DNA of 64,000 nt from positions 71,461 through 135,460 of the forward strand of contig JBAZNR010000001.1 of the NCBI GenBank assembly GCA_041649175.1, read 5' to 3'. The notes under the pieces were generated by a model. That model worked only from the letters and a program-made list of their open reading frames with translations. It searched no databases and had not been told where the DNA came from. This stretch comes from Candidatus Omnitrophota bacterium (GTDB lineage Bacteria > Omnitrophota > Gorgyraeia > Zapsychrales > JBAZNR01). Shown one piece after another: positions 16,494 to 62,818 of the stretch. The number at the start of each line of letters is the position of its first letter. Within the stretch, counting starts at the first letter, position 1. The position numbers and the translations under genes are program-made.

Positions 16494-16506
16494 TAAACAC
16501 CTGTCC

Positions 16507-17949: not shown

Positions 17950-17950
17950 A

Positions 17951-19440: not shown

Positions 19441-19461
19441 TTGTTTTAGCTCCTGAAGCGG

Positions 19462-21240: not shown

Positions 21241-21244
21241 AGCG

Positions 21245-25923: not shown

Positions 25924-27069
25924 TCATTTTGTTTTAATTTTCTTGTAAAAAGTCTGCGCGGACACATCCCAACACCAGCCCAAAAAGAAAGCAAAAAGCG
26001 GCATTGTCCAGCCAAATTGTCGCTGAAGGAACCAATATTTATTAATCAAATCTATGGCAATAACACATCCTATTCCAAAAACAATAAAAACGGCGAAAAA
26101 AACGATCTGTGGCCATTTATCTTTATGCGGAATCAACAAGGAAGCCAACATGCCTAAAAGCAGGAAATATAAAGCCTTATTGCCTATCAAATTACCTAAA
26201 ATACCTTTTAGAAAGCCGACAAGATTAGTTACCGGGCTTGGGATAAATTCAAACGTCGGTACAGCGCCAAAGAAAATCCTTTTCTCTTGGGAAAACCCAA
26301 GATTAATAGACGCATACCACAGCCATATTGCAATGGCGAAAACAAAAAACACTCCGAAGAATTTAATGATCGGATAGATTATTTCTTTAGAAAGGTTGCC
26401 TTTATGCCAATTTAGAAATAATGCATAAATAACCGATAGGCCTATAAACAAAATCCCATAAACATGGAAAATGACGACAAAAATCAGAAAAGCACTGATC
26501 CAAAGCTTTCTCGACAAGCTCATTTCCTTATATTTTTCCATCAAAAGTTCAGTAAAATACAGCGTTCCTACGGCGAGTGCTGGCAAAACAGCATAAGATC
26601 TAAATTCAAAAGCCTGAAATATCAATGTCTGATTTAAACAAACAATGCTAAACGCAACCAAATATCCCCAGATTGTCCGATAATACCTATTGCAGAGCAA
26701 ATACAAGAAGTAAAACAGTAAAATGGCCGACAAGACATGTGGGATCGCTAAAAACCATTTGTTCGCCTCGGCAACACGCTCTGCGAGAGCATAATCACGG
26801 ATCAAGGCATCACCAGCAATTCCCTGTTGAGCAAAAATCTTGATAAAAGGATAGGTTAGGATATAGTCGCCGGGAAAACTCGAAAAATCACCATAATGAT
26901 GCCGCAACCAAAAAGGCTTAAACGGCCCTGCAGAAGATTGGAATTGATACATCTCATCATTGGACAGTGTCCGGGAATTCAATTCGTGAGCCCGTAGCCC
27001 CAAAGCCCCAATAAAAAGAAGCGCGCAGATCAGGATCTTTTTATATCGATCATTCCATTTCATAGCCAA
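25924..27069 (-). CDS. polytopic inner-membrane protein; GT-C-like glycosyltransferase or polymerase/ligase suspected
   Basis: 381 aa with at least 10 predicted TM segments; N-terminal periplasmic-loop acidic motif (NDEMYQ). Family not certain. Confidence 0.35.
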   Translation of the reverse strand: MAMKWNDRYKKILICALLFIGALGLRAHELNSRTLSNDEMYQFQSSAGPFKPFWLRHHYGDFSSFPGDYILTYPFIKIFAQQGIAGDALIRDYALAERVAEANKWFLAIPHVLSAILLFYFLYLLCNRYYRTIWGYLVAFSIVCLNQTLIFQAFEFRSYAVLPALAVGTLYFTELLMEKYKEMSLSRKLWISAFLIFVVIFHVYGILFIGLSVIYALFLNWHKGNLSKEIIYPIIKFFGVFFVFAIAIWLWYASINLGFSQEKRIFFGAVPTFEFIPSPVTNLVGFLKGILGNLIGNKALYFLLLGMLASLLIPHKDKWPQIVFFAVFIVFGIGCVIAIDLINKYWFLQRQFGWTMPLFAFFLGWCWDVSAQTFYKKIKTK

Positions 27070-29119: not shown

Positions 29120-30133
29120 TTAACTTTTGGTTTCTAAATTAACTTCCCGTAAATATTTTGCCGCCAAATCAGGCGATGTCGGTACCAGATAAAATCCCGT
29201 TCCCCATTCAAATCCGGCCACGCGTGTTAATTTCGGAATAATTTCAATATGCCAATGATAACTTTCGTTATTTTCATAACCGACCGGTGCCGTATGCAAA
29301 AAGAAATTATACGACGGATTATTTAACGCTACCTTCATCCGGCGCAGCACCTCGCCTAAACTGCAAGACAGATGATACTGCTCCTCTTCGGTAATGCTGT
29401 TAAACGGTGCGCTGTGTTTCTTGGGGATGATCCAGGTTTCAAAGGGATATCGCGGAACGTAGGGGCAGAAACAAATAAAATCCTTATTCTCGGCAACGAT
29501 CCTTTCTTTATCCTGATACTCCTGATTGATCATATCGCAGAAAATGCACCTCCCGCGATATTCATAATAATACTTCGAACCTTCCAATTCTTCAAGAACA
29601 TATTTGGGGACCATCGGAAGAGCGATGAGTTGTGTATGCCCATGCTCCAAGGAAGCACCGGCAGAATCGCCAAAATTCTTGAAAATAAGGATATATTTAA
29701 AACGTTTATCTTCGGCTAAGCTTTTAGACCGGCTTTGATATTTCTTAACAACCGATAAAATCTCTTCATTGGTAAGATCCGCCAAGCTTTTACGATGATT
29801 CGGTGTTTCAATGATGATCTCATGAGCCCCGATGCCGTTCATCGTATCAAAGATCCCAAGACCAGAACGTTTCAATTCCCCTTCGATCCTTAAAACCGGA
29901 AATTTATTAGGGATCACCCGAACCATCCAGCCTTGCGTATCCGCTTTTGTATTGTGCGGACGAACGGCTTCGATTTCCGACGGAGTTTGATGTTCCCGGC
30001 CATAGCAAAATTGACAGATCGCTTCCTGCTTATAGTGATGTTCTTCTTTGTCGAAGTCTTGCGGGCCCCAAGAATCTTTTGTGTTAACAACCACCCAGCG
30101 GCCGACAATGGGATCTTTGCGTAATTCCGCCAT
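29120..30133 (-). CDS. galT: galactose-1-phosphate uridylyltransferase-family HIT enzyme (paralogue A, catalytic motifs intact)
   Basis: CQFCYG zinc motif; FKNFGDSAGASLEHGHTQ aligns with E. coli FENKGAAMGCSNPHPHGQ (HxH nucleophile present). Confidence 0.8.
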   Translation of the reverse strand: MAELRKDPIVGRWVVVNTKDSWGPQDFDKEEHHYKQEAICQFCYGREHQTPSEIEAVRPHNTKADTQGWMVRVIPNKFPVLRIEGELKRSGLGIFDTMNGIGAHEIIIETPNHRKSLADLTNEEILSVVKKYQSRSKSLAEDKRFKYILIFKNFGDSAGASLEHGHTQLIALPMVPKYVLEELEGSKYYYEYRGRCIFCDMINQEYQDKERIVAENKDFICFCPYVPRYPFETWIIPKKHSAPFNSITEEEQYHLSCSLGEVLRRMKVALNNPSYNFFLHTAPVGYENNESYHWHIEIIPKLTRVAGFEWGTGFYLVPTSPDLAAKYLREVNLETKS

Positions 30134-31162
30134 TTAGATCTCTACCCTTCTTAGGAATTCCGCCGTCTTTTCCGGCGGAATTGAACAAATATAAAATCCG
30201 GTACCTTTTTCAAATCCGGCTACATGCGTTAAGCGAGGCATCACTTCAATGTGCCAATGATAATCTCCTTCAATGGTGTTCCACTCGGTGCTTTTTGATT
30301 TTCCTCGTCGAAACGGTGCTGAATGGATCACGTAATTGTAGGCCGGGTCATTTAATCCTATTTTTAATTTCTGTAAGACTTTTTTCATCATTTCGGCTAA
30401 ATCATATTCAAATCCAATGATCCCTTTGGAAAAATCACAACTATGTTTCTTGGGTAAGATCCATAGCTCGAACGGAAATCTGGCGGCAAAAGGCGAAATA
30501 GCCAAAAAATGGTCGGATTCTAAAACCACTCTGGCTTTAGACTCAAGTTCCTGCTTAATGAGATCGCAATAAACGCATCGTTCGTGGTAAGAGAAATACC
30601 GTCGAGCTCCGACCAATTCTTCTTTAACGCGCATCGGATTAACGGGAGTGGCGATGATCTGAGAACGCGTGTGGCGGATATTTCCTCCGCCGGCTGACCA
30701 TCCGTAATTTTTAAACGGCAGGACATATTTAAAACGCGGATCCTTTTCCAGATCGTTGATGCGCACAACATATGTTTCAAAAACAAGCTTGATCTGCGCG
30801 GCATCTAGATCAGCCATATTGGCAATGTGTTCGGGGGTTTCAATGATAACCTCATGTGCCCCGACATTATCCATCACATCATAAAGCCCATGGCCGCGGC
30901 GCTGAAGATTGCCTTCGATCTTTAAAGCCGGAGCTATGTTAGGGACAACACGGACTTTCCAGTGAGGACTGTTGGGCGCAAAATGGCTTCTGACCGCGTA
31001 AATCTCGGGGGGAGTTTTTGACTCTTTATGTTCGCAAAATGGGCATTCACCTTCATCGATGGTTTTATGATTAGAATCGATGAAGGTTCCCGGCCGACGG
31101 GCTCGTTCCGTGGAAACAATGATCCATCGTCCGATTATAGGGTCTTTGCGTAGTTCTGGCAT
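30134..31162 (-). CDS. GalT-family HIT protein (paralogue B, nucleophile motif altered)
   Basis: CPFCEH zinc motif; FKNYGWSAGGGNIRHTRSQ has only one His where HxH is expected. Directly abuts paralogue A. Confidence 0.75.
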   Translation of the reverse strand: MPELRKDPIIGRWIIVSTERARRPGTFIDSNHKTIDEGECPFCEHKESKTPPEIYAVRSHFAPNSPHWKVRVVPNIAPALKIEGNLQRRGHGLYDVMDNVGAHEVIIETPEHIANMADLDAAQIKLVFETYVVRINDLEKDPRFKYVLPFKNYGWSAGGGNIRHTRSQIIATPVNPMRVKEELVGARRYFSYHERCVYCDLIKQELESKARVVLESDHFLAISPFAARFPFELWILPKKHSCDFSKGIIGFEYDLAEMMKKVLQKLKIGLNDPAYNYVIHSAPFRRGKSKSTEWNTIEGDYHWHIEVMPRLTHVAGFEKGTGFYICSIPPEKTAEFLRRVEI

Positions 31163-40610: not shown

Positions 40611-41753
40611 CTATTTTCCTTTTGATTTTAGGAATTTTTTAATTACTTCGATGACATATTTAAGATTTTCAATGCCTAAATCTTGGTGAACACCGATATG
40701 AAAACCATAATTGCCGAAATATTCAGCCTGAGGAAAATCACCCAATTTATAGCCTAAGAATTTATACCCCGGACATTGGGTCGGCATGGAATAAAAAAGA
40801 TTGCGGGAATCAATTCCGGCTTTATCAATATACGCGACAATTTCATCTCTGGTAAATGGCGCTTCTTCCGTTAAAGTCACCGGAAAAGCATGCGGCCCAA
40901 GCTTCTCATAGGGCTCTTCTTGAATAGAAAAAAGATAACGGTCAAATTGCTTGAAATTCTCGATAAGAAATTTCATATTCCGACGGCGCTTAGCGAGGAT
41001 CTTCGAAAATATCTTTATATTGCCCAGCCCAACAGCCGCTTCGATCTCATTCATTTTCGAAGAAAATCCCACGCGCTTAAAAACAAATTTATGTTCCATG
41101 CCGTGATTGCGCAGTGACCTTAAAATTCCCGCCAAACGGCTGTCATTGGTTGTGATGATCCCGCCTTCAATGGTCGTAACAATGTGCGCCGCATAAAGGC
41201 TAAACGCCGCCATATCCCCAATTGAGCCTATCAATTGGCCGCGATACTCGGCTCCATGAGCCTCCGCGGCATCTTCGATAACGAAAAGTTTATATTTCTT
41301 AGCGAGCGCCATGATCTTGCCCATGTCAGCGGGTTTTCCCATCAAATGAACCGGCATAATAGCTCTTGTCTTGGGCGTGATCGCGGCTTCGATTTTTTCG
41401 GGATTAATATTAAGTGTTTTTCGCTCAACATCCACAAAAACCGGATTAAATCCCGCGTTTAAAACAGCATTGCCGGTGGCTATAAAAGATAGCGCCGGAA
41501 TAATGACCTCATCTCCTCGTTTGGCTCCAAAATCATAAAGTGTCGCCAAAGCTAAAGTATCGGCGTCGGTTCCACTACTGACCGCAACGGCTTCTTTGAC
41601 GCCGAAAAGTTTCGCGAATTTTTCTTCAAAAGAGCGAACGTATTGCCCTTGCGTCACCCACTTTGTTTTTAAAGCTTTGTCGATAAGTTTACGTGCATCA
41701 CTGGTGACCGAAACAGTTCCGAAAGGAACTCGATAATTTGTTTTATGCGCCAT
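40611..41753 (-). CDS. DegT/DnrJ/EryC1/StrS-family sugar aminotransferase
   Basis: VSSGTDADTLALATLYDFGAKRGDEVIIPALSFIATGNAV...AAFSLYAAHIVTTIEGG. Confidence 0.8.
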   Translation of the reverse strand: MAHKTNYRVPFGTVSVTSDARKLIDKALKTKWVTQGQYVRSFEEKFAKLFGVKEAVAVSSGTDADTLALATLYDFGAKRGDEVIIPALSFIATGNAVLNAGFNPVFVDVERKTLNINPEKIEAAITPKTRAIMPVHLMGKPADMGKIMALAKKYKLFVIEDAAEAHGAEYRGQLIGSIGDMAAFSLYAAHIVTTIEGGIITTNDSRLAGILRSLRNHGMEHKFVFKRVGFSSKMNEIEAAVGLGNIKIFSKILAKRRRNMKFLIENFKQFDRYLFSIQEEPYEKLGPHAFPVTLTEEAPFTRDEIVAYIDKAGIDSRNLFYSMPTQCPGYKFLGYKLGDFPQAEYFGNYGFHIGVHQDLGIENLKYVIEVIKKFLKSKGK

Positions 41754-42468
41754 GGATACCTGCTTTTCTTAGGAATTGTTGTACTTGGTTATAACGTTCG
41801 GGGGTCCCAATATCGATAAATTCCCCTTTGGCCATATAGGCGAAAAATTCTTCACCGATCAGCTTCGGGAAAAAATCATATTCAATGGAAAATTGTTCGC
41901 TTGTTTTCACAGAAGAGAAGATGTTCTTGTTCAAACAATACGTCCCGGTGTTTACGTAAGCGGATTTACCGGAGGCTATTTTTTCCTTAAAAGCTAAGAT
42001 CCGATTGTTGTGATCAAATTCAATGGTCCCAAAATCACCGCTTTCCAGAACCTTATTAACGGCAATCGTTGCTACAGCTTTATGGCTTTCATGAAACTTG
42101 GCCAGATCCTTGTACTCTAAAGTGCAAAAACAATCCCCGTTCATGGCGATAAAATGTTCGCTTTGAACAAGCGATGCTCCCTTTTTGATAGCACCGCCTG
42201 TCCCCAGGGGGCTTTCTTCTCGAGAAAAAACAATATCTAAATGTTGAAATGTTTTTTTAAAATACGCTTCAATGACATCAGCGCCGTATCCGGTGCATAA
42301 AATAAACCGCTTCCCGCCTTGCGCGGCAATATAGTCGATCAGGACATTTAAAAATGGTTTTCCGTTAACCTCGGCAAGAACCTTGGGCGCATCGCCTGTC
42401 ACAGAGCGCAGGCGCTTTCCCAGTCCACCGCAAAGAATAACAAAATCTATTTTTGATAAATTGTTCAC
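41743..42468 (-). CDS. hddC: sugar-1-phosphate nucleotidyltransferase (HddC-like, D-glycero-D-manno-heptose-1-P guanylyltransferase suspected)
   Basis: IDFVILCGGLGKRLRSVTGDAPKVLAEVNGKPFL. It lies next to the GHMP heptose kinase and gmhB. Confidence 0.65.
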   Translation of the reverse strand: MNNLSKIDFVILCGGLGKRLRSVTGDAPKVLAEVNGKPFLNVLIDYIAAQGGKRFILCTGYGADVIEAYFKKTFQHLDIVFSREESPLGTGGAIKKGASLVQSEHFIAMNGDCFCTLEYKDLAKFHESHKAVATIAVNKVLESGDFGTIEFDHNNRILAFKEKIASGKSAYVNTGTYCLNKNIFSSVKTSEQFSIEYDFFPKLIGEEFFAYMAKGEFIDIGTPERYNQVQQFLRKAGIHGA

Positions 42469-42479
42469 AGGAAAGTTTT

Positions 42480-43484
42480 TTAGCGAACCTTGCCGCTATC
42501 GGGCTGATAGAAGATGATCTGACTTCCTAAGCTTTCAAAGCGAAAAGGAATTTCTAAATATTTCTTTAGCTTTTCTCGGATCTTTTTTTGTTTTTCAGGC
42601 TGTGCGAACAGAAGAACGAAGCCGCCGCCGCCAGCGCCTAATAATTTTCCACCCAAAGCCCCTGCCCGGCGAGCTGTATTGTATAATTCATCAATTTGAG
42701 GAGTGGTGATCTTATCGGAAAGGCTGCGCTTCAATTTCCAGCTTTCATGAAGAAGTTTTCCGAAACGCGAAAGATCTTTTCCCTCCACAATATCAAACGC
42801 CTCTTTGACCATCTCTTGCATGGCCCCCAGCTCTTTTCTTTTACTAGGGATATTTTTTATTTGATGTTCGGCGATCTCGGAGGCCATCCGCGAAAATCCC
42901 GTAAAAAACATCATCAAATGATCTTGCAAAGACTGCAGCCGTTCTTGCGGAATAGTGATCTTTCGGACAGACAAGTGACTGCTTCCGCCAAATTCAATAT
43001 AGTTAAATCCGCCATAAGCCGCTAATGTTTGATCTTGGCATCCGACATTTTCTTTGCATTTTTTCTGCTCGATATAGATCGCCTCTTTGGCTAAACGCTC
43101 TTTGGTCGGCATGGTTCCTTTAAGAGCATACAAGGCATTCAGAAGCCCAACGGTAAACGATGAGCTGGAACCGAGTCCAGTGCGCGCCGGTAAATCACCG
43201 TCGTGATGGATTTCGATCCCTTCTTTGATCTTTAAGAATTTTAAAACTTCACGAACCGCCGGATGGCGAATATCTTCAGTTTCCTGAATATGTTCAATCA
43301 CAGAATAAATAATGCGGGATTTGTGCTCAAAAAATGGCGGTAAATGGCGGCATGTAATATAACAATATTTATCAATGGTGGTCGCTAAAACAGCGCCTTT
43401 ATTTTCCTTGAACCAATCAGGATAATCGGTGCCGCCGCCAAAAAAAGAAACACGAAAAGGTGTCCGGCTAATGATCATACACAA
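42480..43484 (-). CDS. hddA: GHMP-family sugar kinase (HddA-like, D-glycero-D-manno-heptose-7-P kinase)
   Basis: ISRTPFRVSFFGGGTDYPDW...PARTGLGSSSSF (GHMP motif II). Confidence 0.7.
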   Translation of the reverse strand: MCMIISRTPFRVSFFGGGTDYPDWFKENKGAVLATTIDKYCYITCRHLPPFFEHKSRIIYSVIEHIQETEDIRHPAVREVLKFLKIKEGIEIHHDGDLPARTGLGSSSSFTVGLLNALYALKGTMPTKERLAKEAIYIEQKKCKENVGCQDQTLAAYGGFNYIEFGGSSHLSVRKITIPQERLQSLQDHLMMFFTGFSRMASEIAEHQIKNIPSKRKELGAMQEMVKEAFDIVEGKDLSRFGKLLHESWKLKRSLSDKITTPQIDELYNTARRAGALGGKLLGAGGGGFVLLFAQPEKQKKIREKLKKYLEIPFRFESLGSQIIFYQPDSGKVR

Positions 43485-44986
43485 ACCCTTTCTTCAAGAA
43501 TTTTACGGCGTAATTTTATTTTGGTTGATTTTAACGTTTCGTCGACGGCTGTTTGTCCAAATTTGTCTTTGAGTAAAGCGAGAAATTTTGGGTTGGTATG
43601 GTAAGTATGCCACGCTTTATCACGAAATTCCAAAACCTGTTCGGCGCTTAAATATTTTGTCGGCAAAGGCTGGCACGCATAAGAATGTTGGGAAAATCCC
43701 GCGTATGTATCAGGCAATTTCCACCCTTCTTTCTTGGCAATTCCATATAAAGGGCTGCCCGGATAAGCCATGGCAGAGTAAAAGTTCGCCATTTCCGTAT
43801 TAAGCTCAAGGGCTAGGTCAAGTGTCGCTTGCATGGTTTCAAGATTATCCTCGGGAAGTCCAAAAATATAATTCGCGGCAACATTGATGCCGTGATCGCG
43901 GATCTTTTTGACAATACCTCGGATATCAACATCTTCGAACCGCCCCTTAGTGACATCTTTTCTTACCTTAGTATTGCCGCTTTCAATGCCGAGTGCCAGA
44001 TAATTAATGCCGGCTTTTTTAAGAGTTTCCAAATACTGTTCTTTGACCGTATCAATACGCGAATAACACCAAATATTAAACTGATAATCACGCTCAATAA
44101 GCAGTTCACATAAACGCATAAAATGATTCGTGTTTAAAACAAAAAGTTCGTCAGCGATCTTAATATTTCGAATGCCAAGTGTTTGCAGTTTATCAAATTC
44201 CTTAACAATGAATTCCGGATCCCAATACCTAAAAACCGCGCTTCCATCGGAATATTCATTTTCCTGCCGATTGATGATGTTGATCATGCAAAAAGAACAT
44301 TTCATCGGGCAACCCAAGCTCGTATAGATCGCCCCGAAAGGTTCCCGGTCGGCGCTATTAGGAAGCGAGTGCCAAAGCGCCGTGCGATATCTGGACATAG
44401 ATAATTTATCCCAGGCAACGCCGGGCAATTCAGTTGCCAGATCTTCCTTGGACACGATCGGCGACGGGCTATTAAGAACGATTTTCCCATCTTGACGATA
44501 CCCTAGCCCAAGAACTTGGTCCAACTTATCTTCCAAATTAGTTTTAAGAAGATTGGAAATAGTGTAGACGCCTTCATTCTGGCAAACCATATCAATATAG
44601 GGATGTTTTTCAAGGACTTCGCGCGATAAAGCGCTGACATGCCCGCCGACAAAAAGTATTTTGATTTCCGGAGAATTTTTCTTGAGCTCTTCCGCTAAAG
44701 AAACAGCCCCATCCATATTTTGCGAACTGGCGCTGGGTTGTTGCCCGTAAACAACAAAACAGGCAACCTTGGGGTTAAAACCTTTGATCATCATCGCCGC
44801 GTGAAAATCATCCAGGCGCAAGGCTTCACAGTCTAAAATCTCGGCGCTAAACCCTTTTTTAAGGCAATGATTGGCTAACATCCCCGCCCAAATAGGCGGC
44901 TCAATGGCGGAATAATATTTGCTAAGCCCCTGATAAATTTTCTCGGAGGCATTAGGCTGGATAAAAAGAATATCGAGTTGCTTCAT
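43475..44986 (-). CDS. B12-binding radical SAM enzyme (class B; methyltransferase-like)
   Basis: N-terminal Rossmann-like B12-binding domain (ILFIQPNA...EILDCEA); TSLGCPMKCSFCMI CxxxCxxC; 503 aa. Confidence 0.8.
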   Translation of the reverse strand: MKQLDILFIQPNASEKIYQGLSKYYSAIEPPIWAGMLANHCLKKGFSAEILDCEALRLDDFHAAMMIKGFNPKVACFVVYGQQPSASSQNMDGAVSLAEELKKNSPEIKILFVGGHVSALSREVLEKHPYIDMVCQNEGVYTISNLLKTNLEDKLDQVLGLGYRQDGKIVLNSPSPIVSKEDLATELPGVAWDKLSMSRYRTALWHSLPNSADREPFGAIYTSLGCPMKCSFCMINIINRQENEYSDGSAVFRYWDPEFIVKEFDKLQTLGIRNIKIADELFVLNTNHFMRLCELLIERDYQFNIWCYSRIDTVKEQYLETLKKAGINYLALGIESGNTKVRKDVTKGRFEDVDIRGIVKKIRDHGINVAANYIFGLPEDNLETMQATLDLALELNTEMANFYSAMAYPGSPLYGIAKKEGWKLPDTYAGFSQHSYACQPLPTKYLSAEQVLEFRDKAWHTYHTNPKFLALLKDKFGQTAVDETLKSTKIKLRRKILEERVCV

Positions 44987-46875: not shown

Positions 46876-47412
46876 CTACTTTTGATTATAGAAGTTTCCG
46901 TGTTCTATCAGAAGAGTGGATTTATTATCTTTGCGCTCAAAGGCATGTTTGTAGGCCGGAAAAATATCTTCCGGTTCATTGAGCTCAACAACATCAATGG
47001 TGGTAAACATTTTTCTAAAGGCATCCGCGTAGTTTCCGACGTGCTGATGGCCGGGATGCACGGGGCTATCGGGTCCGGTTGCCACCCGAATTAAGACTTT
47101 AGGAATCAACTGATTAGCGCTGATCGCCGGTATTTTATCCAGCATATTGACCATATCTGAAACCGCAATGAGCAGAAAATTTTGCCGCGGATAAACCGAG
47201 ATAGGAATATACCCCGCTAGGGATAATCCGATCGTAAATTGCATTTGAAAACTTTCATTGATCGGCATTTCTAAAGTCCGCTCGGGCGATACATCGCGAA
47301 GCGTTTGGAACATAAAAGTCCCTGGCCCGGCAACAGTTTGCCCGACAAAAATAGACTTAGGCTGCTGGGCCAACCATTCCATCGTGCGTTTTAATTCGTC
47401 AAAATATTTCAT
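46876..47412 (-). CDS. thiamine-diphosphate enzyme, pyrimidine-binding subunit (E1-beta / transketolase C-section-like, minimal)
   Basis: 178 aa; Pyr-domain-like; lacks the C-terminal TK_C domain of canonical E1-beta. Confidence 0.6.
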   Translation of the reverse strand: MKYFDELKRTMEWLAQQPKSIFVGQTVAGPGTFMFQTLRDVSPERTLEMPINESFQMQFTIGLSLAGYIPISVYPRQNFLLIAVSDMVNMLDKIPAISANQLIPKVLIRVATGPDSPVHPGHQHVGNYADAFRKMFTTIDVVELNEPEDIFPAYKHAFERKDNKSTLLIEHGNFYNQK

Positions 47413-47413
47413 A

Positions 47414-48025
47414 TTAAAATTTAATGAGTTTTCCTAGCCCAGAATGCGGATAACCGTTTAGATATTTAAAATAGATGATCTTGGATTCAAATTTTGTATC
47501 TTTAAACCACGGCTCAGCGCAATTCCAGACTTCTCTGGTTTTTGTCATAACGCTAAGCCCATTATCGCAAACAATGAATTTAACCGGCAGGTCAAAGTGG
47601 ACGGCGTATTTCACCGATTCGTGAAAAATCCCCGTTTCAGCTGACATATCACCGCAAAAAATGTAGGCTTTTCCTTTTTTTCCTTGGCGTTTTAAAGCCC
47701 ATGCAACGCCGACCGCTGTTCCTAAAAGGCTTCCGACAATACCTGAACAGAGAATTTTCTGCCCCGGAAAACACAAAGAAATGCTTTTGCCTTCCTGAAT
47801 AGCCTTCTTAAGCTCTTCGCGCCCAACCCCTTTTAGAAGAGCCAGTTCGTGAGAATCCCAGAAGCCGAAGACATAGTCATCCGAGCCAATGGCATTTTCC
47901 TTAAAAATCCGGATGAGCTCGTCTTCCCGCCCGGCACGTAAATGGACAGGAGCCCGAATACTGCCAGTGGCAAAAATGTCGGCTATTTCCTTCTCAAAGC
48001 TGATGATTTCTTCTTTGGTAACCAT
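47414..48025 (-). CDS. thiamine-diphosphate enzyme, PP-binding subunit (E1-alpha-like, minimal)
   Basis: CGDMSAETGIFHESVKYAVHFDLPVKFIVCDNGLSV matches the GDG-X25-30-NN TPP motif and aligns with E1-alpha GDGA...FVCENNQYAM. The printed sequence has an extra C at 48000/48001 relative to the ORF track. Confidence 0.65.
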   Translation of the reverse strand: MVTKEEIISFEKEIADIFATGSIRAPVHLRAGREDELIRIFKENAIGSDDYVFGFWDSHELALLKGVGREELKKAIQEGKSISLCFPGQKILCSGIVGSLLGTAVGVAWALKRQGKKGKAYIFCGDMSAETGIFHESVKYAVHFDLPVKFIVCDNGLSVMTKTREVWNCAEPWFKDTKFESKIIYFKYLNGYPHSGLGKLIKF

Positions 48026-48111: not shown

Positions 48112-48270
48112 CTAAAATAAGGCGTAGATAAACGGAGCTACGGCCGAACTTTGGGCCAAGATCATTAGCGATCCTAGCAGAATAAGGACTACAACGATCG
48201 GCATCAGCCAATACTTCTTTCTCACGCTTAAAAATTCCCATAATTCTTTCAGAATAGACAACTTCGACAT
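48112..48270 (-). CDS. small membrane protein, DUF5989/SxtK-like (52 aa; below the ORF-track length cut-off)
   Basis: Hand-translated as MSKLSILKELWEFLSVRKKYWLMPIVVVLILLGSLMILAQSSAVAPFIYALF*. AGGAGA sits 7 nt upstream of the ATG. There is one TM helix and a C-terminal APFIY(T/A)LF-type motif recalled from DUF5989 proteins. Coordinates are within 1 nt. Confidence 0.55.
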   Translation of the reverse strand: MSKLSILKELWEFLSVRKKYWLMPIVVVLILLGSLMILAQSSAVAPFIYALF

Positions 48271-48293: not shown

Positions 48294-49925
48294 CTACTGG
48301 GCTAGTTTTTCTAAAATAACATCCGCCAACCGATCAGCGATCAGCTGATTACCCTTACGCGTACAATGCCCAAAATCTCCGGCAAATTGATCCACAAAAT
48401 ACTCATCATAACGCCCTGTTTTTAAGGCTTTCTCAAATACTTCTTTATTTTCAACAAAGATTATATTACGTTTCTGACCTAACATTTCCTTCAACGGCAG
48501 GATATCGCGCAAAGGATACTGCATACAGATCAGTTTCACCCTACTGCGTAAAATGCGGTCGACAATGTCGAGATAATGTTTGACGGTGAATGAATTATAC
48601 GTCCGAGAAGATGTCACTTTGCTTTTTTCGGCATATTCTTTGGCTAAATCGGATTTTCCTTGTCTTTCGTAACATCGAATCAAATATTCATAAAGACGCA
48701 CATCTTTGGGATTCAGCGCGATCGCTTTTAAATAAAGGCTTTCTGCTTTCGCATATTGCTGTTCCTCCTCGTAAAGAGAACCGAGCTGTTGATAGACCCA
48801 GTGATTTTGCGGATTGATCTCAAGAGACCTCAAGAAAGCTTCTTTAGCTTGGGCGTTTTGCCCCTGAATCTTTAGCCATTGGCCCATTTCGCCGTACGCC
48901 CAAAAGTTATTTGGATCTATTTTTAGTAAATCGCGATAAACCACAATGGCCTTTTCATGATTTCCCACTTCGTTATTGCATCGGCCTAATTCAAGGCGAG
49001 CCCAAAATAATTCCGGATCAAGCGCGATCGCTTTTTCAAAGACCGTTATTGCTTGATCAAATTTTCTTTGAACCTTATAACAACGGCCCAAGCCCGCATA
49101 GGCAACCGCATCTTGCGGGCTGATCTCGATCGCTTTTTGATAAGCACTTTCAGACTGGAGGAATTCTTCACGCTCCCGATGCCAGCGCCCTAACTCTGAA
49201 TAAAGATCTCCCAGGGCAAGATTAAGCTTCTGCTCTTGTTCTTGCGCTTTCTCAACACCTGCCAAATTTCCGCGTTTTTCATAAGCCTTTTTGATCTCTT
49301 GAATTAATTGATGGTTCTTTGTTATCTGCGTTATTTGGAAACGAATGACCGCGATCTCTTTAACTGGCACAACATCTTCCGGAATGTCGGAATATTGCTT
49401 TGGCCTCGTCTTAAATCCAAATCTAATTTTATGAGATACGTGCAATGCGAGAAGCTTGGCAAGTTTATAAACACGCAGGTCTCCCGCAAGAGAACGAATT
49501 GGTGCTTTTCTGTCCTGGCCGGCAAGGCCGTCATATTTGTCATCATTGATCCCCATCATCACAATGACTGCCTGCGGTTTGTACTTGGCCAAATTGGCTT
49601 CGAGCTGCGCGGCGATATCGCCCGAGTCTTTAGCCGGAAGTCCCTTATTGATAATTTTAAATTTAATTTTTCTGCTTCTTTCATTGAGAGTTTCTTCAAG
49701 CAAAAAAGGATAGGCATATTCTCCGCCTAAGGCTGTTGTTGATTCTCCTAAGCATAAAATACGATATTCGCTGTCACCTTGAAGAGAAATCTTATTTGAC
49801 CGCTCCTGCAGATAAAAGAATGCCGCGCCGCTTAAGCGCAATCCTGACTCCAAAAGAATAACGGATAAAGCTAGGCCTAAAAAAATGAGGGATATTTTCT
49901 GGATCAATGTTGTTTTCATGATCAT
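48294..49925 (-). CDS. membrane-anchored SGNH/GDSL-family hydrolase interrupted by a TPR-repeat domain (paralogue 1)
   Basis: N-terminal TM anchor; block I ILCLGESTT (Ser nucleophile); block III MMGINDD; about 280 aa of TPR repeats (AYAGLGRCY, WARLELGRC, WAYGEMGQW, WVYQQLGSLY...); C-terminal block V DFGHCT (DxxH). Confidence 0.7.
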   Translation of the reverse strand: MIMKTTLIQKISLIFLGLALSVILLESGLRLSGAAFFYLQERSNKISLQGDSEYRILCLGESTTALGGEYAYPFLLEETLNERSRKIKFKIINKGLPAKDSGDIAAQLEANLAKYKPQAVIVMMGINDDKYDGLAGQDRKAPIRSLAGDLRVYKLAKLLALHVSHKIRFGFKTRPKQYSDIPEDVVPVKEIAVIRFQITQITKNHQLIQEIKKAYEKRGNLAGVEKAQEQEQKLNLALGDLYSELGRWHREREEFLQSESAYQKAIEISPQDAVAYAGLGRCYKVQRKFDQAITVFEKAIALDPELFWARLELGRCNNEVGNHEKAIVVYRDLLKIDPNNFWAYGEMGQWLKIQGQNAQAKEAFLRSLEINPQNHWVYQQLGSLYEEEQQYAKAESLYLKAIALNPKDVRLYEYLIRCYERQGKSDLAKEYAEKSKVTSSRTYNSFTVKHYLDIVDRILRSRVKLICMQYPLRDILPLKEMLGQKRNIIFVENKEVFEKALKTGRYDEYFVDQFAGDFGHCTRKGNQLIADRLADVILEKLAQ

Positions 49926-49939
49926 AAAAGCGCTTTAAC

Positions 49940-51559
49940 TTATTTAATATTTTTTAGTATGGCTTTAGAAATATTTTCAGCCAATAATTTATTTCCCTGG
50001 GCCGTGCAATGGCCAAAATCACCGGCAAAACGATCGTAGAAATACTGGTCATATCCGTTTTTGTTAACAGCGTCCTGAAAAACTGCCCGATTATCAACAA
50101 AAATAATTCCCGTGGAAGATAGATCTTTTCTCAATAGCGCAATATCGCGCAAAGGATACTGAGCGCAGATAAGCTTTATTCCTTTTTTAAGGACAATTTC
50201 TTTTAATTGTTGGTAGTTGGACATCGTTGGAGAATCATGTTTGACCAGCCTTTTCTGCCGTAAATTGATCAATTGGTTTGCCAAATCTTTCTTTCCCTGA
50301 GACTCATAATAGGAAGCCAGCCGCGCATAGATATCGGCCGACGAACCGGAAAACTGCCCGGACGTTAACCTCAAAAAAAGATCCTGAAAAACTTTTTGCG
50401 CTTCTTCCGGTTTATTATTTTCCTGCAAAATAAAACCTAGTTCCAAAATCCAGACCGGAACCTGTACAGATTCGGGATTAGCATCAATGGCTTTTTTAAA
50501 TAAATCCTCCAGGAGATCTTCTTTGGCGTTTTTCCGATAACAATAGGCTATCTTGCCGTAAACCCAAACATTTTCAGGATTAGTTTCCAGTTGTTTTTGG
50601 TACATCAGTTCTGCTTCATGATATCTTTGCTGTTCTAAATAAACATCGGCCAAATTACCGTAAATCTCTAAATTATCCGGAACAACAGCCAAGATCCGCT
50701 TATAAAGATTTTCGGCTTGAGAATATTTCGCCTGCATTTTATAGCAGTTTGCTAATTGATACGTTGCCACGAACTGATGTTCATCCGAGAGCTTTCCCAA
50801 TTCGATGACTTTTTTAAACGCGTCTTCACCTTTTTTGTAATCCGCCCATTCACGATAATAAAGGCCTAAATAAAAGTAGGCTTGCGCATTATTGCCATCC
50901 AGCTCGATTGCTCTTAAATAAGCTTCTTTCTCCTTGTCGAACTTTTGGACCATTTTATACATACGCCCTAATTCCATGTATTTTTCTGATGATGGAGACA
51001 GAGAGATCTTTTTTTCAAAATCTTTGACTTTTCTCTCCAATGTTTCCATAATCAATTCCTCTTTTTTGTGCTCCGCATGAGACCAGATCAACCTAGCCAA
51101 CTTATAAACCTTCAATCCATCCAAGAAAGACCTCTGCAGATTTTTCTCTTGAGCTTTAAATCGCAAGGTATCCGAAGAGTCATTAATGCCCATCATCGTA
51201 ACGATCATCTTTGGATGATATTCGTCGATCCAGGTTTCCAAATACGAAACGATATCGTATGTATTCATCGCCGGGACACCTTTATTGATAACGGAAAAAC
51301 GAACGGAAGGATTTTTGGCATTGAGGATTTCTTCTAATTGCCGAGGATACGCGTGCGCGCCGCCCAAAGCCGTGGTAGATTCTCCCAGACAAAGGATCCG
51401 GTATTCTCCGTTGCCGCAGGCAGAAGCACGGTTAAGGCTTTCCTGAAAGAACAGAAAAGCAAATCCGCCGATCCTTAAAGCTATTTCAAGGAAAGCAATA
51501 GCTAAGAAAAGGCCGAAACATATAAGGAATAACTTTTGTCTTAAAGTAGTTTGAGGCAT
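49940..51559 (-). CDS. membrane-anchored SGNH/GDSL-family hydrolase interrupted by a TPR-repeat domain (paralogue 2)
   Basis: Same architecture: YRILCLGESTTALGG, MMGINDS, central TPR repeats, FAGDFGHCTAQGN. The catalytic segments are about 55% identical to paralogue 1. Confidence 0.7.
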   Translation of the reverse strand: MPQTTLRQKLFLICFGLFLAIAFLEIALRIGGFAFLFFQESLNRASACGNGEYRILCLGESTTALGGAHAYPRQLEEILNAKNPSVRFSVINKGVPAMNTYDIVSYLETWIDEYHPKMIVTMMGINDSSDTLRFKAQEKNLQRSFLDGLKVYKLARLIWSHAEHKKEELIMETLERKVKDFEKKISLSPSSEKYMELGRMYKMVQKFDKEKEAYLRAIELDGNNAQAYFYLGLYYREWADYKKGEDAFKKVIELGKLSDEHQFVATYQLANCYKMQAKYSQAENLYKRILAVVPDNLEIYGNLADVYLEQQRYHEAELMYQKQLETNPENVWVYGKIAYCYRKNAKEDLLEDLFKKAIDANPESVQVPVWILELGFILQENNKPEEAQKVFQDLFLRLTSGQFSGSSADIYARLASYYESQGKKDLANQLINLRQKRLVKHDSPTMSNYQQLKEIVLKKGIKLICAQYPLRDIALLRKDLSSTGIIFVDNRAVFQDAVNKNGYDQYFYDRFAGDFGHCTAQGNKLLAENISKAILKNIK

Positions 51560-57333: not shown

Positions 57334-59478
57334 TTATTCTCCTGCTTGCGATCCGGCTTTTCTTTTATTAAAACCATTTCCAAAATCAATAGATAAATCC
57401 GGAAAAGCTTTTAAGCGAAAGACAAACCAAATTTCGCTACCCGAACCGCGCGTTTCGTTAAAATTAATATCCATTTCCCAACAATGCAAATCCCGCGTCA
57501 CCCTAAACTCTTGTTCTTTTAATGAACCGCTATTAATGTCATGCCGCTCATAAATACTGAATTTCCATTTTGGGTTGATCACATAGTTAAACCCTGTTGT
57601 GATCTGGTCATCAACATCTAAGGCATAACGCTTCCCAAAATCAAGAGACCATTTGTGGCCGGTAAGATAAATGTCAAAATTAGCCGAGATCAATTTATCT
57701 TTCGTAGTATCAAAATTGGCATCGGAATTAAATGTCAGCCAATCGTTGGGCTTAAATTCAATATCGGAAGCAATGCTACCAAACCCGCCGGTCCCGCTAT
57801 GCTCCTTAAGAAAGAAATCTGTGCTGGTAAGAACCCGCAACAAATCTACGGCAATGCCTTTGCGTTTTGTTTGTAGTTTATTTTCCAGAGAAAAATGAAT
57901 CTTGTGATCATTGGTAATAGCGTCAATATCGTCAAAATAATCTAATGAAGACGCCGGGATCGTCGGGTCATGCCGATACTCATAAGCAACACTTGGCGTA
58001 ACAACATGTCTGAGGCGATTAATATCCATCCCCCAATAATGCCCTTGGACATCGAACATCCGGAAAAATCTAGTACTAAGATCCGCGCCTGTCCTGAAAA
58101 TTCCCCGCATAACGCTATACTGAGAAGCATTCATCGTTTTTGTATAATAAGTCTCCCGGCCGCCGACAAAAGGTTTAAATTCTAAAAAGCTGATCTTCAT
58201 CGGGTAAGAGATCTCATTATTCGTGTCAAAACGTTTGGTTTCTTTTCTTACCTCAGTCGGCGACGGGTCTTTCTTCGAGAAATTATCAAATCCGTTTTCA
58301 CTTTTTAGATAAAATCCGCTGTTACCAATCTCTTGGCTGGTAACGTCGTAACGGATCCCCGGAAGCCGCTCAACAGTCGAAGTAAAACGATTCACCCGAA
58401 CATCACTGCGAAAGCTGAACGTTCCATTAGATAAATTTCTAGTTAAAAGGAAATAACTGGTAGGATCTTGGTCCTTCTGGTATTCCCGCTTAAGATAATC
58501 TTTAACGACGCCCGCATCACTCAACTTATAAAATTGCCAAATGGCCTCTGTCTTGTTATCAATGCTCCATTTATGACGCCACTGAGCTCTAAACCGTTCC
58601 CGTTCGATCGTCGGGCTTGGCCTCTCTTGCCAAGCATATTTTGACGTAATATTGCGTTCGTTCATATAATAGGTTCGGATAGAACCGCCGCCCATATTTT
58701 TCGTGTTATAGTTTAAATCAACACCGGAAGCAAAATCTTTTCGTTCGCGATAATCTAAATGAATGATACCTTTAAAATCCTCGCTAAAATAATATCGCCA
58801 TGATTGAAGTAAAAACGCGCCCCATTCCCTGTCGAAACCGGGCGTATAAGTAACACGAGGCTTATCATTAAGGATCTGAGAATATTTAGGAATATACATA
58901 ACCGGTACTTTACCAAAACGCATAGTGACATTGCGCGCAACAGCCTTTTTCCCGGGATAAATATCAAGCTTCTTCGATGCTAATTTGAAATGCGGTTTTT
59001 CAAGATCGCAGGTCGTTAAATAACCTTTTTTCATTTGGATTTGATTCTCAGCAACCTTGGAAACAGATTCTCCAGCGCCGTAATACGGGTGAGACGCGAT
59101 TGTCGCCCCGTGAAAATCCCCCGTCATCGTTTCGAAATTATAAACCAGTTGGTCTCCGGAAATACTTCCCTGTGGCGTTCTTAAAACGACATGCCCCTGG
59201 GCGGTGGCAAGATTCGTATCGCGGGAAAATTCAACCCGGTCACAGGTTAGTTTTGTATCATTCTGAAGAATAGAAACATTTCCGGTGGCAATGACCATAT
59301 TTTTTTCCACAATGAACTCGACCTGGTCGCCGTTAATTTCAACCGGAGTTTTGGACTCTTGCGCAAAAGCCTGAGTTGAAACCAAAAACAAGAAACAGGC
59401 TACCCAGCAACCCTTGCCAAGAAATTGATGCAGAAGATTAGACATAAAATTAGAAATCTTACTTTGCCGAAACAGCAT
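57334..59478 (-). CDS. lptD: LPS-assembly outer-membrane protein LptD (OstA family)
   Basis: Signal peptide; OstA N-terminal domain (VEINGDQVEF...ATGNVSI...LTCDRVEF...AQGHVVL...GDQLVYNF); about 550-aa beta-barrel. Confidence 0.8.
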   Translation of the reverse strand: MLFRQSKISNFMSNLLHQFLGKGCWVACFLFLVSTQAFAQESKTPVEINGDQVEFIVEKNMVIATGNVSILQNDTKLTCDRVEFSRDTNLATAQGHVVLRTPQGSISGDQLVYNFETMTGDFHGATIASHPYYGAGESVSKVAENQIQMKKGYLTTCDLEKPHFKLASKKLDIYPGKKAVARNVTMRFGKVPVMYIPKYSQILNDKPRVTYTPGFDREWGAFLLQSWRYYFSEDFKGIIHLDYRERKDFASGVDLNYNTKNMGGGSIRTYYMNERNITSKYAWQERPSPTIERERFRAQWRHKWSIDNKTEAIWQFYKLSDAGVVKDYLKREYQKDQDPTSYFLLTRNLSNGTFSFRSDVRVNRFTSTVERLPGIRYDVTSQEIGNSGFYLKSENGFDNFSKKDPSPTEVRKETKRFDTNNEISYPMKISFLEFKPFVGGRETYYTKTMNASQYSVMRGIFRTGADLSTRFFRMFDVQGHYWGMDINRLRHVVTPSVAYEYRHDPTIPASSLDYFDDIDAITNDHKIHFSLENKLQTKRKGIAVDLLRVLTSTDFFLKEHSGTGGFGSIASDIEFKPNDWLTFNSDANFDTTKDKLISANFDIYLTGHKWSLDFGKRYALDVDDQITTGFNYVINPKWKFSIYERHDINSGSLKEQEFRVTRDLHCWEMDINFNETRGSGSEIWFVFRLKAFPDLSIDFGNGFNKRKAGSQAGE

Positions 59479-60515: not shown

Positions 60516-61529
60516 TTAATACAGCCCGAACGTACAAATGCAATTACGCCCTTTTTTCTTAGCCCGGTACAAAGCCCAATCAGCTTTGTCAATAAGCTCC
60601 GCGACTAGCTTCCCATCTGAAGGGAATGTGGAAACACCGATGCTCACGGTCACCTTCACATTCGCATCATAGGCTTTGATGTTCTCCCCCGCTACGGCCG
60701 AACGGATACGTTCTGCCGCAAATTGCGCTCCGTCTTGATCGGTATCGGGCAAAACAACCGTAAGCTCTTCTCCTCCGTAACGGCCTACAATATCGATCTC
60801 TCGAATATTATCCTTCACGATACCGCCAATGGTGCGTAAAATTTGATCACCCACCAAATGCCCGTATTTATCATTAAAACTTTTGAAGTGGTCAACATCG
60901 ATCATAAGAAATGACAGATTTATTTTTCGCGTTATGGAACGCTTCAATTCTTCTTCAAACCGCTCCAAAAAATACCGGCGCGTATGAACTCCTGTCAAAC
61001 TATCTGTGATCGCCGATTCTTCGATCTCTTGATAAAGCTTAACGCGGCGCAATGCCAAGGCAAATTGATGGCCTAGAATAGCCAGCTTATCTTTATCTTT
61101 CGCGGATAAACCCTTAACCACAAGATACCCGAGTTTACGATTTTTCTCCTGGAGAGGAAAAACAAAATGCCTTTCGGATAAAATATGGATCTCATGTTCA
61201 CTGGACAGCGCGTCAATAAACTGACAATCTTCGAAGACGATATTTTCTTTTAATTTTTCTTTAAAGATCTCAAAGGCTTCTTCTTCATTGAGCTTTTTGG
61301 TGATCTCTCTGGTCATTTCATACAAGATGAAGATCTCTCTGGCCGAATGCTCAAGCTGGCTGCGTTCTTGGAGTATTTGGTTTCGCTTTTCTAGCAGATC
61401 TTCATGCCGGTTTATCACCTGAGACGTGGCCTCATCAGCCGCGAACTCTAGGCTGTAAGAAACTTTCTTAAGCCCGTAGATAACGGCTCCGACAAATAGC
61501 GCCAAACAAAATGTCATTCCATAAAACAT
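60516..61529 (-). CDS. membrane-anchored diguanylate cyclase (GGDEF; GGEEL variant)
   Basis: N-terminal TM, coiled coil, GAF-like region, RYGGEELTVVL. Confidence 0.8.
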   Translation of the reverse strand: MFYGMTFCLALFVGAVIYGLKKVSYSLEFAADEATSQVINRHEDLLEKRNQILQERSQLEHSAREIFILYEMTREITKKLNEEEAFEIFKEKLKENIVFEDCQFIDALSSEHEIHILSERHFVFPLQEKNRKLGYLVVKGLSAKDKDKLAILGHQFALALRRVKLYQEIEESAITDSLTGVHTRRYFLERFEEELKRSITRKINLSFLMIDVDHFKSFNDKYGHLVGDQILRTIGGIVKDNIREIDIVGRYGGEELTVVLPDTDQDGAQFAAERIRSAVAGENIKAYDANVKVTVSIGVSTFPSDGKLVAELIDKADWALYRAKKKGRNCICTFGLY

Positions 61530-62818
61530 ACGCGATTTCTTCCCTTGGCTTTTGCCCGGTACATGGCATTATCCGCAACTGCGATCAATTCTTCGCGTAA
61601 ACGAGCATCCGATGGAAATGTCGCCACCCCGATCGAAACAGTAATACGCGTTTTTTGCTTGCGCAGAATGATCTCTTGTTTCTGAATTCGTTTGCGCACT
61701 TCGTCTGCCAGTTCAATGGCTTTTTCCTTCGAACAATCCGGCAAAAGGACGGCAAACTCTTCCCCGCCAAAACGCGATACCAAATCTCCGGGATTTTTGA
61801 ACGTTTCCTGTAAGATCATCGCCACGGTCCTTAGCAAAATATCTCCGGCCATATGCCCATAGTGATCGTTGTAATCTTTGAACTTGTCTAAGTCAACCAT
61901 CAAAAATGACAGCTCTCTTTTACTGCGGAATTCCCGGCTGATCTCTTCGGTCATACGCGCTAAAAGATAACGGCGAAGATATAATCCCGTTAATCCATCT
62001 TTGATAGCCAGTTCTTCAACGCGCTCATAAAGTTGCGCATTTTCAATAGCCACCGCCCCTAAATCACCGATCGTCGATAGAAACCGCAGATCATCCGACT
62101 TAAAACAATTTTCTTGGGGCGTATCAACGCGGAGGATCCCTAAGGCCTTATTGCCGATCATCAAAGGCGTGCTGATCAAAGAACCGATGGCGCGAGCTTC
62201 TTCAGAGACTGCCTTGTCCATATCAAAACGAAAATCGTTTTTTGCGGCTTCGACCAAAAGCGGCTGCAAGGTCTTGACCACCCAGCCGTCAAAGAGATCG
62301 CCTTTCTTAGATTTGATATTGATCCGCATTTGCCCTTTTTGAGAAGATGTTAACCCTAGCTCACCGGTGCGGGAATGAAAAAGATAAAGGATCGTAGTGA
62401 TATCGCCATCGCCAAACAAGCGGTCTGTTTCGGCAGAAAGCGTTTCGGAAGTGTCTTCCAGGGAAAGACAGCGGCTTAATTTCTCCGTCAAGTCCTTAAG
62501 CTTAGAATAGTTGATGATCTTTTCTTGGAAGGCTTTTAAAACGGATGTTTCGGTTTCAATTTCGGCCTCCAGCAGATTATTCTTTTCCAAATAATCTTGG
62601 CGCTTGACCTCAGCTTCCGCCCGCTTCTTTTGAATACGCAAACGAACGGCAAAAAGAAACGCGATCAGAATGATCTGCGCAATGGCAACAAAAAATAAAA
62701 ACCCGGTGTGGGCACGAAGAGAAAAACTAAAGAAAAAGATCTGGAAGAAAATAAAAAAGAAGAAAAAGAGAGGCAAAAGCGCGGAGTTAGATAATTGTTT
62801 TTTCGGTTTCCTTGTCAA
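61514..62818 (-). CDS. membrane-anchored GAF-GGDEF diguanylate cyclase (GGEEF)
   Basis: Poly-Phe TM N-terminus, coiled coil, GAF-like region, SRFGGEEFAVLL, RAKAKGRNR. Confidence 0.8.
   Translation of the reverse strand: MTRKPKKQLSNSALLPLFFFFFIFFQIFFFSFSLRAHTGFLFFVAIAQIILIAFLFAVRLRIQKKRAEAEVKRQDYLEKNNLLEAEIETETSVLKAFQEKIINYSKLKDLTEKLSRCLSLEDTSETLSAETDRLFGDGDITTILYLFHSRTGELGLTSSQKGQMRINIKSKKGDLFDGWVVKTLQPLLVEAAKNDFRFDMDKAVSEEARAIGSLISTPLMIGNKALGILRVDTPQENCFKSDDLRFLSTIGDLGAVAIENAQLYERVEELAIKDGLTGLYLRRYLLARMTEEISREFRSKRELSFLMVDLDKFKDYNDHYGHMAGDILLRTVAMILQETFKNPGDLVSRFGGEEFAVLLPDCSKEKAIELADEVRKRIQKQEIILRKQKTRITVSIGVATFPSDARLREELIAVADNAMYRAKAKGRNRVCFME
62700..62790. repeat. A/G-rich low-complexity tract (encodes the poly-Phe N-terminus of the GGDEF protein on the minus strand)
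   Basis: The plus strand reads aaaaataaaaacccggtgtgggcacgaagagaaaaactaaagaaaaagatctggaagaaaataaaaaagaagaaaaagagaggcaaaag. Confidence 0.4.

Follow-up and report, generated by a model that had tools for sequence, protein, structure and literature searches.

The acylation state of peptidoglycan and of the glycans on bacterial surfaces is set by SGNH enzymes, whose targeting is usually explained by separate scaffolds, as in AlgK-AlgX, or by appended domains, such as that of TviD or carbohydrate-binding modules (CBMs). The tetratricopeptide repeat (TPR) domain of TviD binds the partner glycosyltransferase (GT) TviE and mediates membrane association (PMC8760489). AlgX, AlgJ and PatB are circularly permuted (block order H-S-G-N); AlgX, which has a tyrosine in block III, and AlgJ depend on the MBOAT protein AlgI, and PatB carries a TDHHW block V (PMC9487903). 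The 2022 review of the SGNH superfamily (PMC9487903) covers 16 families without mentioning TPR, and the CBM35 of Ape1 is the sole nested accessory domain that it cites. Here we describe two adjacent genes, A and B, found at 48294-51559 of a 64,000-nucleotide stretch (hereafter the window) from the genome of a Candidatus Omnitrophota bacterium. By motif and predicted fold their products are members of the SGNH superfamily, and they define an undescribed architectural variant, in which the catalytic fold itself houses a protein-docking solenoid. Literature searches for SGNH together with TPR, and for Omnitrophota together with TPR, returned no description of such a nested architecture, and more than 1,000 sequence clusters with it are annotated only as 'TPR protein'.

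Architecture of the two proteins

The interval consists of exactly two open reading frames (ORFs), both on the minus strand and separated by 14 nt. Gene A (48294-49925; MFA5059110.1) encodes 543 amino acids (aa), or 541 if Met3 is taken as the alternative start (P0001), and gene B (49940-51559; MFA5059111.1, P0061) encodes 539 aa with the same architecture, a predicted membrane-anchored SGNH enzyme with a nested TPR array. They lie on a 1.2-Mb contig and both carry the NCBI label 'tetratricopeptide repeat protein [Candidatus Omnitrophota bacterium]'. Each protein has one hydrophobic segment, at the N-terminus (best 19-mer Kyte-Doolittle score 2.3 in A and 2.7 in B). In A, residues 7-45 (49791-49907) comprise the anchor helix and a juxtamembrane helix with an LExxLR motif, as judged from the model helix, hydrophobicity, the positive-inside count and conservation. 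Glu26 (49848-49850) of the anchor helix is invariant in the family and Arg30 (49836-49838) nearly so; neither is part of the classical SGNH signature. Residues 53-130 (49536-49769) then form the N-terminal half of the SGNH fold, with strands b1-b3 and blocks I-III, containing the nucleophile Ser62 (49740-49742) in the CLGESTT of block I, Gly95 (49641-49643) in block II and Asn127 (49545-49547) in the GIND of block III.

Directly after block III comes an amphipathic helical hairpin (residues 141-171, 49413-49505), which is also found in relatives without the insert, and then a disordered linker. The nested insert of A (residues 189-444, 48594-49361) starts with a long hairpin (189-252), continues with the TPRs (253-422, 48660-49169) and ends with a capping helix and linker (423-444). 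The repeats are tandem 34-residue helix-turn-helix units, as is characteristic of TPRs, and many Pfam TPR models match A and B between about residues 190 and 440. The C-terminal half of the fold (residues 445-543, 48297-48593) contains a helix (445-460), strands b4 (464-469) and b5 (488-491), a QYPxR motif, block V with Asp517-x-x-His520 (48366-48377) and a C-terminal helix. In B, the catalytic residues are Ser61 (51377-51379), Gly94 (51278-51280), Asn126 (51182-51184) and the DFGH motif (50009-50020), and the insert spans approximately residues 172-436 (50252-51046). The insert is about 270 residues long, and block V lies about 25 residues before the C-terminus in both proteins. As the chain exits the fold right behind the oxyanion-hole Asn, known SGNH topology would place the insert on the active-site side of the sheet.

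A preliminary description of this DNA, made from the letters alone, had already noted the anchor, the SGNH motifs and a DxxH block at the extreme C-terminus beyond the TPR region. All of these are indeed present in both proteins and at equivalent positions: YRILCLGESTT is at A54/B53, NKG at A93/B92, MMGIND at A123/B122 and FAGDFGHCT at A514/B511. It had also counted six to eight repeats; the TPRs are nested as described, but the count was slightly high, as A has five of an exact 34-residue period followed by a half repeat and the capping helix, and B has about 5-7, weaker than those of A. A and B align over their full length with 33% identity (E 2e-96), and the identity is unevenly distributed, at 52% over residues 41-130 and 50% over residues 460-543 but 31% over residues 176-445, so that the earlier estimate of catalytic parts conserved at about 55% beside diverged TPRs was close to the measured values. 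The genes are tandem and homologous, as had been claimed, but the pair is old, because each is closer to proteins of other genomes (A to P0002 at 42%, B to P0046 at 45%) than to its neighbour (only about 34% in the same comparison). A and B are thus anciently diverged paralogues and not the product of a recent duplication.

Evidence for a single catalytic domain

Four lines of evidence, namely the predicted sheet, coevolution across the insert, relatives without the insert and in silico excision, strongly support the view that the two catalytic segments form one canonical SGNH domain with the block order S-G-N-H. They also agree with the earlier structural reading of the TPR array as an excursion from one SGNH fold. 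In the AlphaFold2 (AF2) model of A, with a predicted local distance difference test score (pLDDT) of 89, five strands (53-60, 88-93, 119-124, 464-469 and 488-491) make up a parallel sheet within a single alpha/beta/alpha domain, in which the blocks from both sides of the insert are united. The closest structural neighbours are 1yzf, 4rw0 and 3rjt, and carbohydrate esterases of families CE3 and CE17 (2vpt, 6hfz, 7ddy) are among the best. When the full model of A was compared with the PDB by Foldseek, TPR proteins were the sole matches, since sequential alignment does not span a split domain, and a single-sequence AF2 model of A without the insert was unusable (pLDDT 37).

For the coevolution we applied mean-field direct-coupling analysis (DCA) to the catalytic columns only of 337 family sequences, taking as the null six runs with the C-terminal halves exchanged at random between sequences. 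The highest-scoring pair of all, M124-I454, connects the two halves, and V120-I458, A113-S461 and R83-D535 also lie above the maximum of the six shuffled nulls. Half-shuffling removes shared ancestry as well and is therefore a liberal null, so the geometric coherence of these pairs is a stronger argument than their exceeding it: the first helix beyond the insert presents positions 454, 458 and 461 on a single face, and the residues paired with them belong to strand 3 and helix 3. The near-invariant Arg473 of QYPxR, just after strand 4, pairs with the triad Asp517 (score 2.45, rank 9) and may position it.

GDSL matches in intact A and B span only the first half of the profile, for example positions 1-97 of the 178 of PF13472, and intact B reaches 31.4 against the PF00657 threshold of 23.6. 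When residues 173-443 are removed from A, PF00657 aligns over positions 1-207 of 208 with a score of 22.0 (E 2e-4), slightly under that threshold, and PF13472 scores 32.6 against a gathering threshold of 32.9. An insert-free relative (L072:923-1990) compared with a hidden Markov model built from the catalytic parts only aligns as one domain across the junction (E 1e-25). The C-terminal 103 residues of A on their own match no other Pfam family. Among the curated NCBIfam models, A and B reach no cut-off, TPR models being sub-threshold (e.g. PrsT, 69.8 against 312), and A without the insert scores 19.9 against the cut-off of 270 of the TesA model (NF007819). A sequence search of the PDB with full A finds TPR proteins only, the closest TPRs being those of OGT and SPINDLY, and with the insert excised it finds marginal GDSL matches (E 0.007 or worse; TesA, thioesterase I).

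Conservation was analysed in 338 family sequences, of which 106 had been picked by motif and 232 had not. The nucleophile Ser62 is present in 337 of 337 (and in 63 of 63 in a smaller alignment) and His520 in 338 of 338, while Gly519 and Gly525 never vary. Gly95 (333/338), Asn127 (332/338), Asp128 (328/338), Gln469, Tyr470, Pro471 and Asp512 each vary in less than 3% of the sequences; at the triad position 517, 290 sequences have Asp, 31 have Asn and 7 have Glu. Two cysteines outside the classical SGNH signature flank the catalytic residues: Cys58 (four residues before the Ser; 49752-49754) is invariant and Cys521 (directly after the His; 48363-48365) is found in 331 of 338. A Cys58-Cys521 disulfide was considered as a marker of periplasmic location and was not used, as five sequences have Ala521 yet keep Cys58. 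Across the family, pairwise identity averages 51% for the catalytic columns, 43% for the anchor and 27% for the insert. Because all catalytic and oxyanion residues are conserved, A and B are most likely active acyl-ester hydrolases or acyl-transferases, as judged from sequence.

The family is large and uncharacterised, and databases label it only 'TPR protein'. A word-indexed search with A gave 601 matches, nearly all covering 99% of the query, and exhaustive HMMER searching, for which the insert was cut out of the query, yielded 1,354 cluster representatives (clustering at 50% identity) at E <= 1e-30 and 2,839 at E <= 1e-10. The best 150 HMMER matches, 367-755 aa long, all align in two separated stretches. 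There are at least 579 loci in species-representative genomes, most of them from Candidatus Omnitrophota and others from Elusimicrobia, Firestonebacteria and metagenome-assembled genomes (MAGs) labelled Planctomycetales or Patescibacteria. The spacing between the block III Asn and strand 4 (N127-Q469) is 220-371 residues in 63 aligned members. Two to six family genes occur within the flanks at 18 of 76 loci, mostly in tandem; such arrays are seen at L027:1208-11768 (six SGNH-TPR genes), L046:6823-13206, L037 and L023, and the MAG fen_1321 (PLLJ01) holds at least 12 copies over five contigs.

Insert-free SGNH proteins of 320-370 aa adjoin TPR-nested genes at L009:8969-9955, L030:4051-5022, L037:2533-3576, L060:4123-6261 and L072:923-1990. 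They share with A and B the anchor motif (E..LR), blocks I-III, the helices after block III, the helix and strand 4 beyond the junction, and block V, but they lack the TPR array, have GDS instead of GES in block I and carry about 50 extra residues before it. They are uncharacterised too, and match weakly GDSL esterases of the Leptospira LA_2486/LA_2490 type.

Genomic context and proposed function

A and B belong to a long co-directional run with gaps of 14-23 nt, within a sugar-nucleotide and GT region that has LptD upstream. A UXS-like gene precedes the pair with a gap of 20 nt, and a 52-aa ORF (48112-48270, minus strand) follows 23 nt downstream of A. Between 47300 and 52700, promoter-like sites do not exceed the level of shuffled sequence, and no terminator-like site falls within an intergenic gap. 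The window as a whole is a large surface-glycan region, with RmlA/B/C-like proteins, two UDP-sugar dehydrogenases, the UXS-like enzyme, a GDP-fucose-synthase-like protein, epimerases, aminotransferases, GTs of families GT2, GT4 and GT9, methyltransferases and an ABC exporter, as well as nonulosonic-acid genes (NeuB, CMP-transferases, PseB/PseC-like and WbuX). In another genome, a syntenic locus (L001) has a single family gene in the slot of A and B.

The placement of the pair beside nucleotide-sugar genes, given in the preliminary description, holds, and its DUF5989 ORF can be specified: it is the 52-aa small membrane protein just mentioned (PF19451, E 5.7e-25) and not the overlapping 66-aa ORF. 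DUF5989 is a recurrent though non-obligatory neighbour of family genes, and about a dozen loci have the order carbamoyltransferase(-SxtJ)-DUF5989-family gene or a variant of it, of which the window, where neither carbamoyltransferase nor SxtJ is found, retains DUF5989 only. The module stands beside SGNH-TPR genes at L007, L022, L056, L068, L071, L031 and L034. A literature search on DUF5989 found no paper.

What do these enzymes do then? We favour, with somewhat better than even confidence, the view that A and B are periplasm-facing, membrane-anchored SGNH acyl esterases or transferases whose substrates would be envelope glycans or lipid-linked intermediates and whose TPR array would serve as a docking or specificity module. 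The earlier guess of a glycan O-acyl esterase or transferase is a reasonable, partly supported hypothesis. The N-terminus is probably cytoplasmic and the catalytic and TPR parts periplasmic, because the short N-terminus is rich in Lys and Arg; the flank on the N-terminal side of the hydrophobic segment is richer in these residues than the C-terminal one in 60 of 63 sequences. The inner-membrane helix would then tether the catalytic and TPR parts close to the periplasmic surface of the membrane, where O-acyl groups would be removed from, or transferred to, an envelope glycan or lipid-linked intermediate made by the surrounding nucleotide-sugar and GT locus. The conserved charged anchor motif and the amphipathic hairpin near the active site suggest that the reaction takes place at the surface of the membrane, where a lipid-linked or nascent glycan could be the substrate. 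Because it would emerge beside the active-site face, the TPR array may dock partners or select the substrate, a role that we propose by analogy with TviD-TviE and AlgK-AlgX, and the rapid divergence of the TPRs together with the tandem arrays of paralogues could provide each copy with a different partner or substrate. We lean towards an esterase (de-O-acylase), because no acyl-donor partner was found.

Several observations weigh against this proposal. The periplasmic location has the positive-inside rule as its sole basis, and intact A stays below the Pfam gathering thresholds (29.8 against 32.9 for PF13472 and 19.6 against 23.6 for PF00657). No MBOAT or AT3 acyl-donor partner was seen among the scanned window ORFs of at least 150 aa or among ten representatives of multi-transmembrane neighbours drawn from 78 related loci, which weakens the transferase version; several of these neighbours turned out to be of GT-C type (PMT_2, YfhO). 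Family neighbourhoods are also heterogeneous: no fixed partner gene emerged across these 78 loci, and the commonest neighbours, a NodU/CmcH-type carbamoyltransferase and a radical-SAM protein, each occur at 10 of about 75. What suggests a glycan substrate is therefore the window together with its syntenic relative, and not the whole of the family.

Such variable surroundings, with no fixed glycan partner, would also suit a lipid- or protein-directed acyl esterase (a lysophospholipase, or a de-acylase of lipoproteins or proteins), whose TPRs bind protein clients and which does not modify glycans. The weak sequence matches are of the TesA/lysophospholipase L1 type (NF007819 and, in the PDB, TesA and thioesterase I), peptides are the usual ligands of TPRs, the nearest TPR sequences here being those of OGT and SPINDLY, and the amphipathic helices by the active site together with the charged anchor motif are suggestive of work at the membrane surface. 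However, the gene sits inside a sugar-nucleotide/GT operon both in the window and in the syntenic relative, carbohydrate esterases of CE3 and CE17 (2vpt, 6hfz, 7ddy) rank among the best structural neighbours, and inspection of the TPR repeat register did not reveal an Asn ladder of the OGT type, so we regard this explanation as possible but unlikely. The same operon setting, among cytoplasmic nucleotide-sugar enzymes and GTs, can be read in favour of a cytoplasm-facing, TviD-like O-acetyltransferase that depends on acetyl-CoA and acts on the growing glycan, its TPRs binding a GT of the locus. TviD does unite an SGNH-like domain and TPRs through which it binds the polymerase TviE and associates with the membrane (PMC8760489), the top structural neighbours 1yzf, 4rw0 and 3rjt were the templates used to model it, and no periplasmic acyl-donor partner was found for A and B. 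Yet the positive-inside count gives N-in/C-out in 60 of 63 sequences, TviD has no N-terminal transmembrane helix, uses Cys instead of Ser, shows no recognisable block II or III and carries TPRs that are appended and not nested, and similarity to TviD was absent from every sequence search made. This cytoplasmic variant seems to us rather improbable.

That the proteins are catalytically dead TPR scaffolds with SGNH remnants, or artefacts of gene fusion or assembly, is effectively refuted. This idea could draw on the public annotation as TPR proteins only and on the sub-threshold, half-profile Pfam GDSL matches of A; but the Ser, Gly, Asn and His vary hardly or not at all, the catalytic halves are about twice as conserved as the insert, and the split layout recurs in each of the 150 best matches among the representatives of no fewer than 1,354 clusters, which come from independent assemblies, and at 579 loci or more. 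Conserved catalytic parts combined with a fast-evolving insert point to an active enzyme with an accessory module and not to a dead scaffold.

A bolder version of the periplasmic acyl-editing proposal, which we consider a fairly long shot, is that the family constitutes a modular toolkit of Omnitrophota- and Elusimicrobia-type envelopes, in which one conserved SGNH engine, tethered to the periplasmic face of the membrane, is combined with TPRs swapped or diversified per tandem paralogue for different clients. As the TPR emerges directly after the oxyanion-hole Asn, it might in addition gate the active site. Candidate clients would be GT-C proteins (PMT_2/YfhO-like), the carbamoyltransferase-SxtJ-DUF5989 module, export machinery and protein substrates. 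If true, this would be a new way to program the substrate choice of SGNH enzymes. GT-C type membrane glycosyltransferases (PMT_2/YfhO), some with TPR neighbours, are found near family genes at L003:5436-7031, L044:7488-8963, L049:11898-14465, L057:14521-16893 and L078:9509-11965, and may hint at periplasmic glycosylation partners.

The rest of the window contains several further features, all on the minus strand. Amid the sugar-nucleotide genes, a split enzyme dependent on thiamine pyrophosphate (46876-48025), with an E1_dh-like alpha part (47414-48025) and a transketolase/E1-beta-like part (46876-47412), is kept in L001 and could perform a branch-forming or ketol-transfer step on a sugar. Also syntenic with L001 is a consecutive row of a B12-binding radical-SAM protein (43475-44986), a GHMP kinase (42480-43484) and a nucleotidyl-transferase (41743-42468), an arrangement suggestive of a pathway that activates and modifies an unusual, perhaps heptose-like, sugar. 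A tandem pair of GalT/HIT-like paralogues is found at 29120-30133 and 30134-31162. A 381-aa ORF (25924-27069) with about seven predicted transmembrane helices and no Pfam or NCBIfam match adjoins an ABC exporter with a transmembrane domain (23407-25251) and could encode a Wzy- or ligase-like protein. The nonulosonic-acid/amidino-sugar set (13733-23375) comprises PseB-like (22389-23375), PseC-like (21245-22402) and NeuB (15465-16493) genes, the WbuX N-acetyl-sugar amidotransferase (20086-21240; TIGR03573, E 3e-101) with HisH/HisF-like partners (18682-20085), two CMP-sugar cytidylyltransferases and a GT28-GNAT fusion. Immediately upstream of the sugar operon lies a gene for an LptD-like outer-membrane lipopolysaccharide (LPS) transport protein (57334-59478), which overlaps the next ORF by 56 nt and indicates a diderm envelope with LPS in this Omnitrophota genome. 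Two GGDEF diguanylate cyclases (60516-61529 and 61514-62818), the second with a GAF domain, make up another tandem pair of paralogues.

Comparison with described SGNH systems

Recognising the family would lead to corrected annotations in Omnitrophota, Elusimicrobia and related candidate phyla, and tandem paralogues with divergent TPRs may help to explain the tailoring of envelopes in these little-known, often host-associated bacteria. In canonical SGNH/GDSL esterases and lipases (CE3 from C. thermocellum, 2VPT; RiCE17, 6HFZ; AlAXEase, 7DDY; the E. faecalis protein 1YZF; TesA) the chain of the catalytic domain is uninterrupted, whereas in A, B and their relatives 220-371 residues are inserted after block III. 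A and B differ from them also in the N-terminal anchor with its invariant Glu, in having GESTT instead of GDS(L) and in the Cys flanking the catalytic His, and sequence similarity is marginal (E 0.007 in the PDB).

Membership of the AlgX/PatB/DltD group, to which the preliminary description had wished to compare the proteins by profile, is excluded, as is that of AlgJ, by block order, which is S62-G95-N127-H520 in A, with Asn in block III and DFGH as block V; PF16822 has no match in A or B. The AT3-SGNH arrangement (OafA/OafB/OatA type) was likewise rejected, given the single hydrophobic segment of each protein and no Acyl_transf_3 match in the window. The AlgK-AlgX pair remains instructive as a periplasmic SGNH-like acyl-transferase attached to a TPR-type scaffold (PMC9734138), and AlgJ is similarly anchored by one N-terminal helix. 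There, however, the TPR and SGNH parts are separate proteins, and AlgX uses the MBOAT protein AlgI, no equivalent of which is found near A and B.

TviD, the O-acetyltransferase of the Vi antigen (PMC8760489), resembles A and B in combining an SGNH-type domain and TPRs in one polypeptide encoded in a polysaccharide locus. In TviD the catalytic domain is complete (residues 1-322), has a Cys-His(-Asp) centre and precedes the TPRs, while A and B have a Ser nucleophile, retain blocks II and III and carry the TPRs nested in the fold. In this last respect the peptidoglycan O-acetylesterase Ape1 (PMC9487903) is a precedent, as it too holds an accessory domain inside its SGNH domain. The nested module of Ape1 is nevertheless a beta-sandwich CBM35 in a soluble periplasmic protein, and not an alpha-solenoid TPR as in the membrane-anchored A and B, whose family offers a natural test of domain insertion beside an active site.

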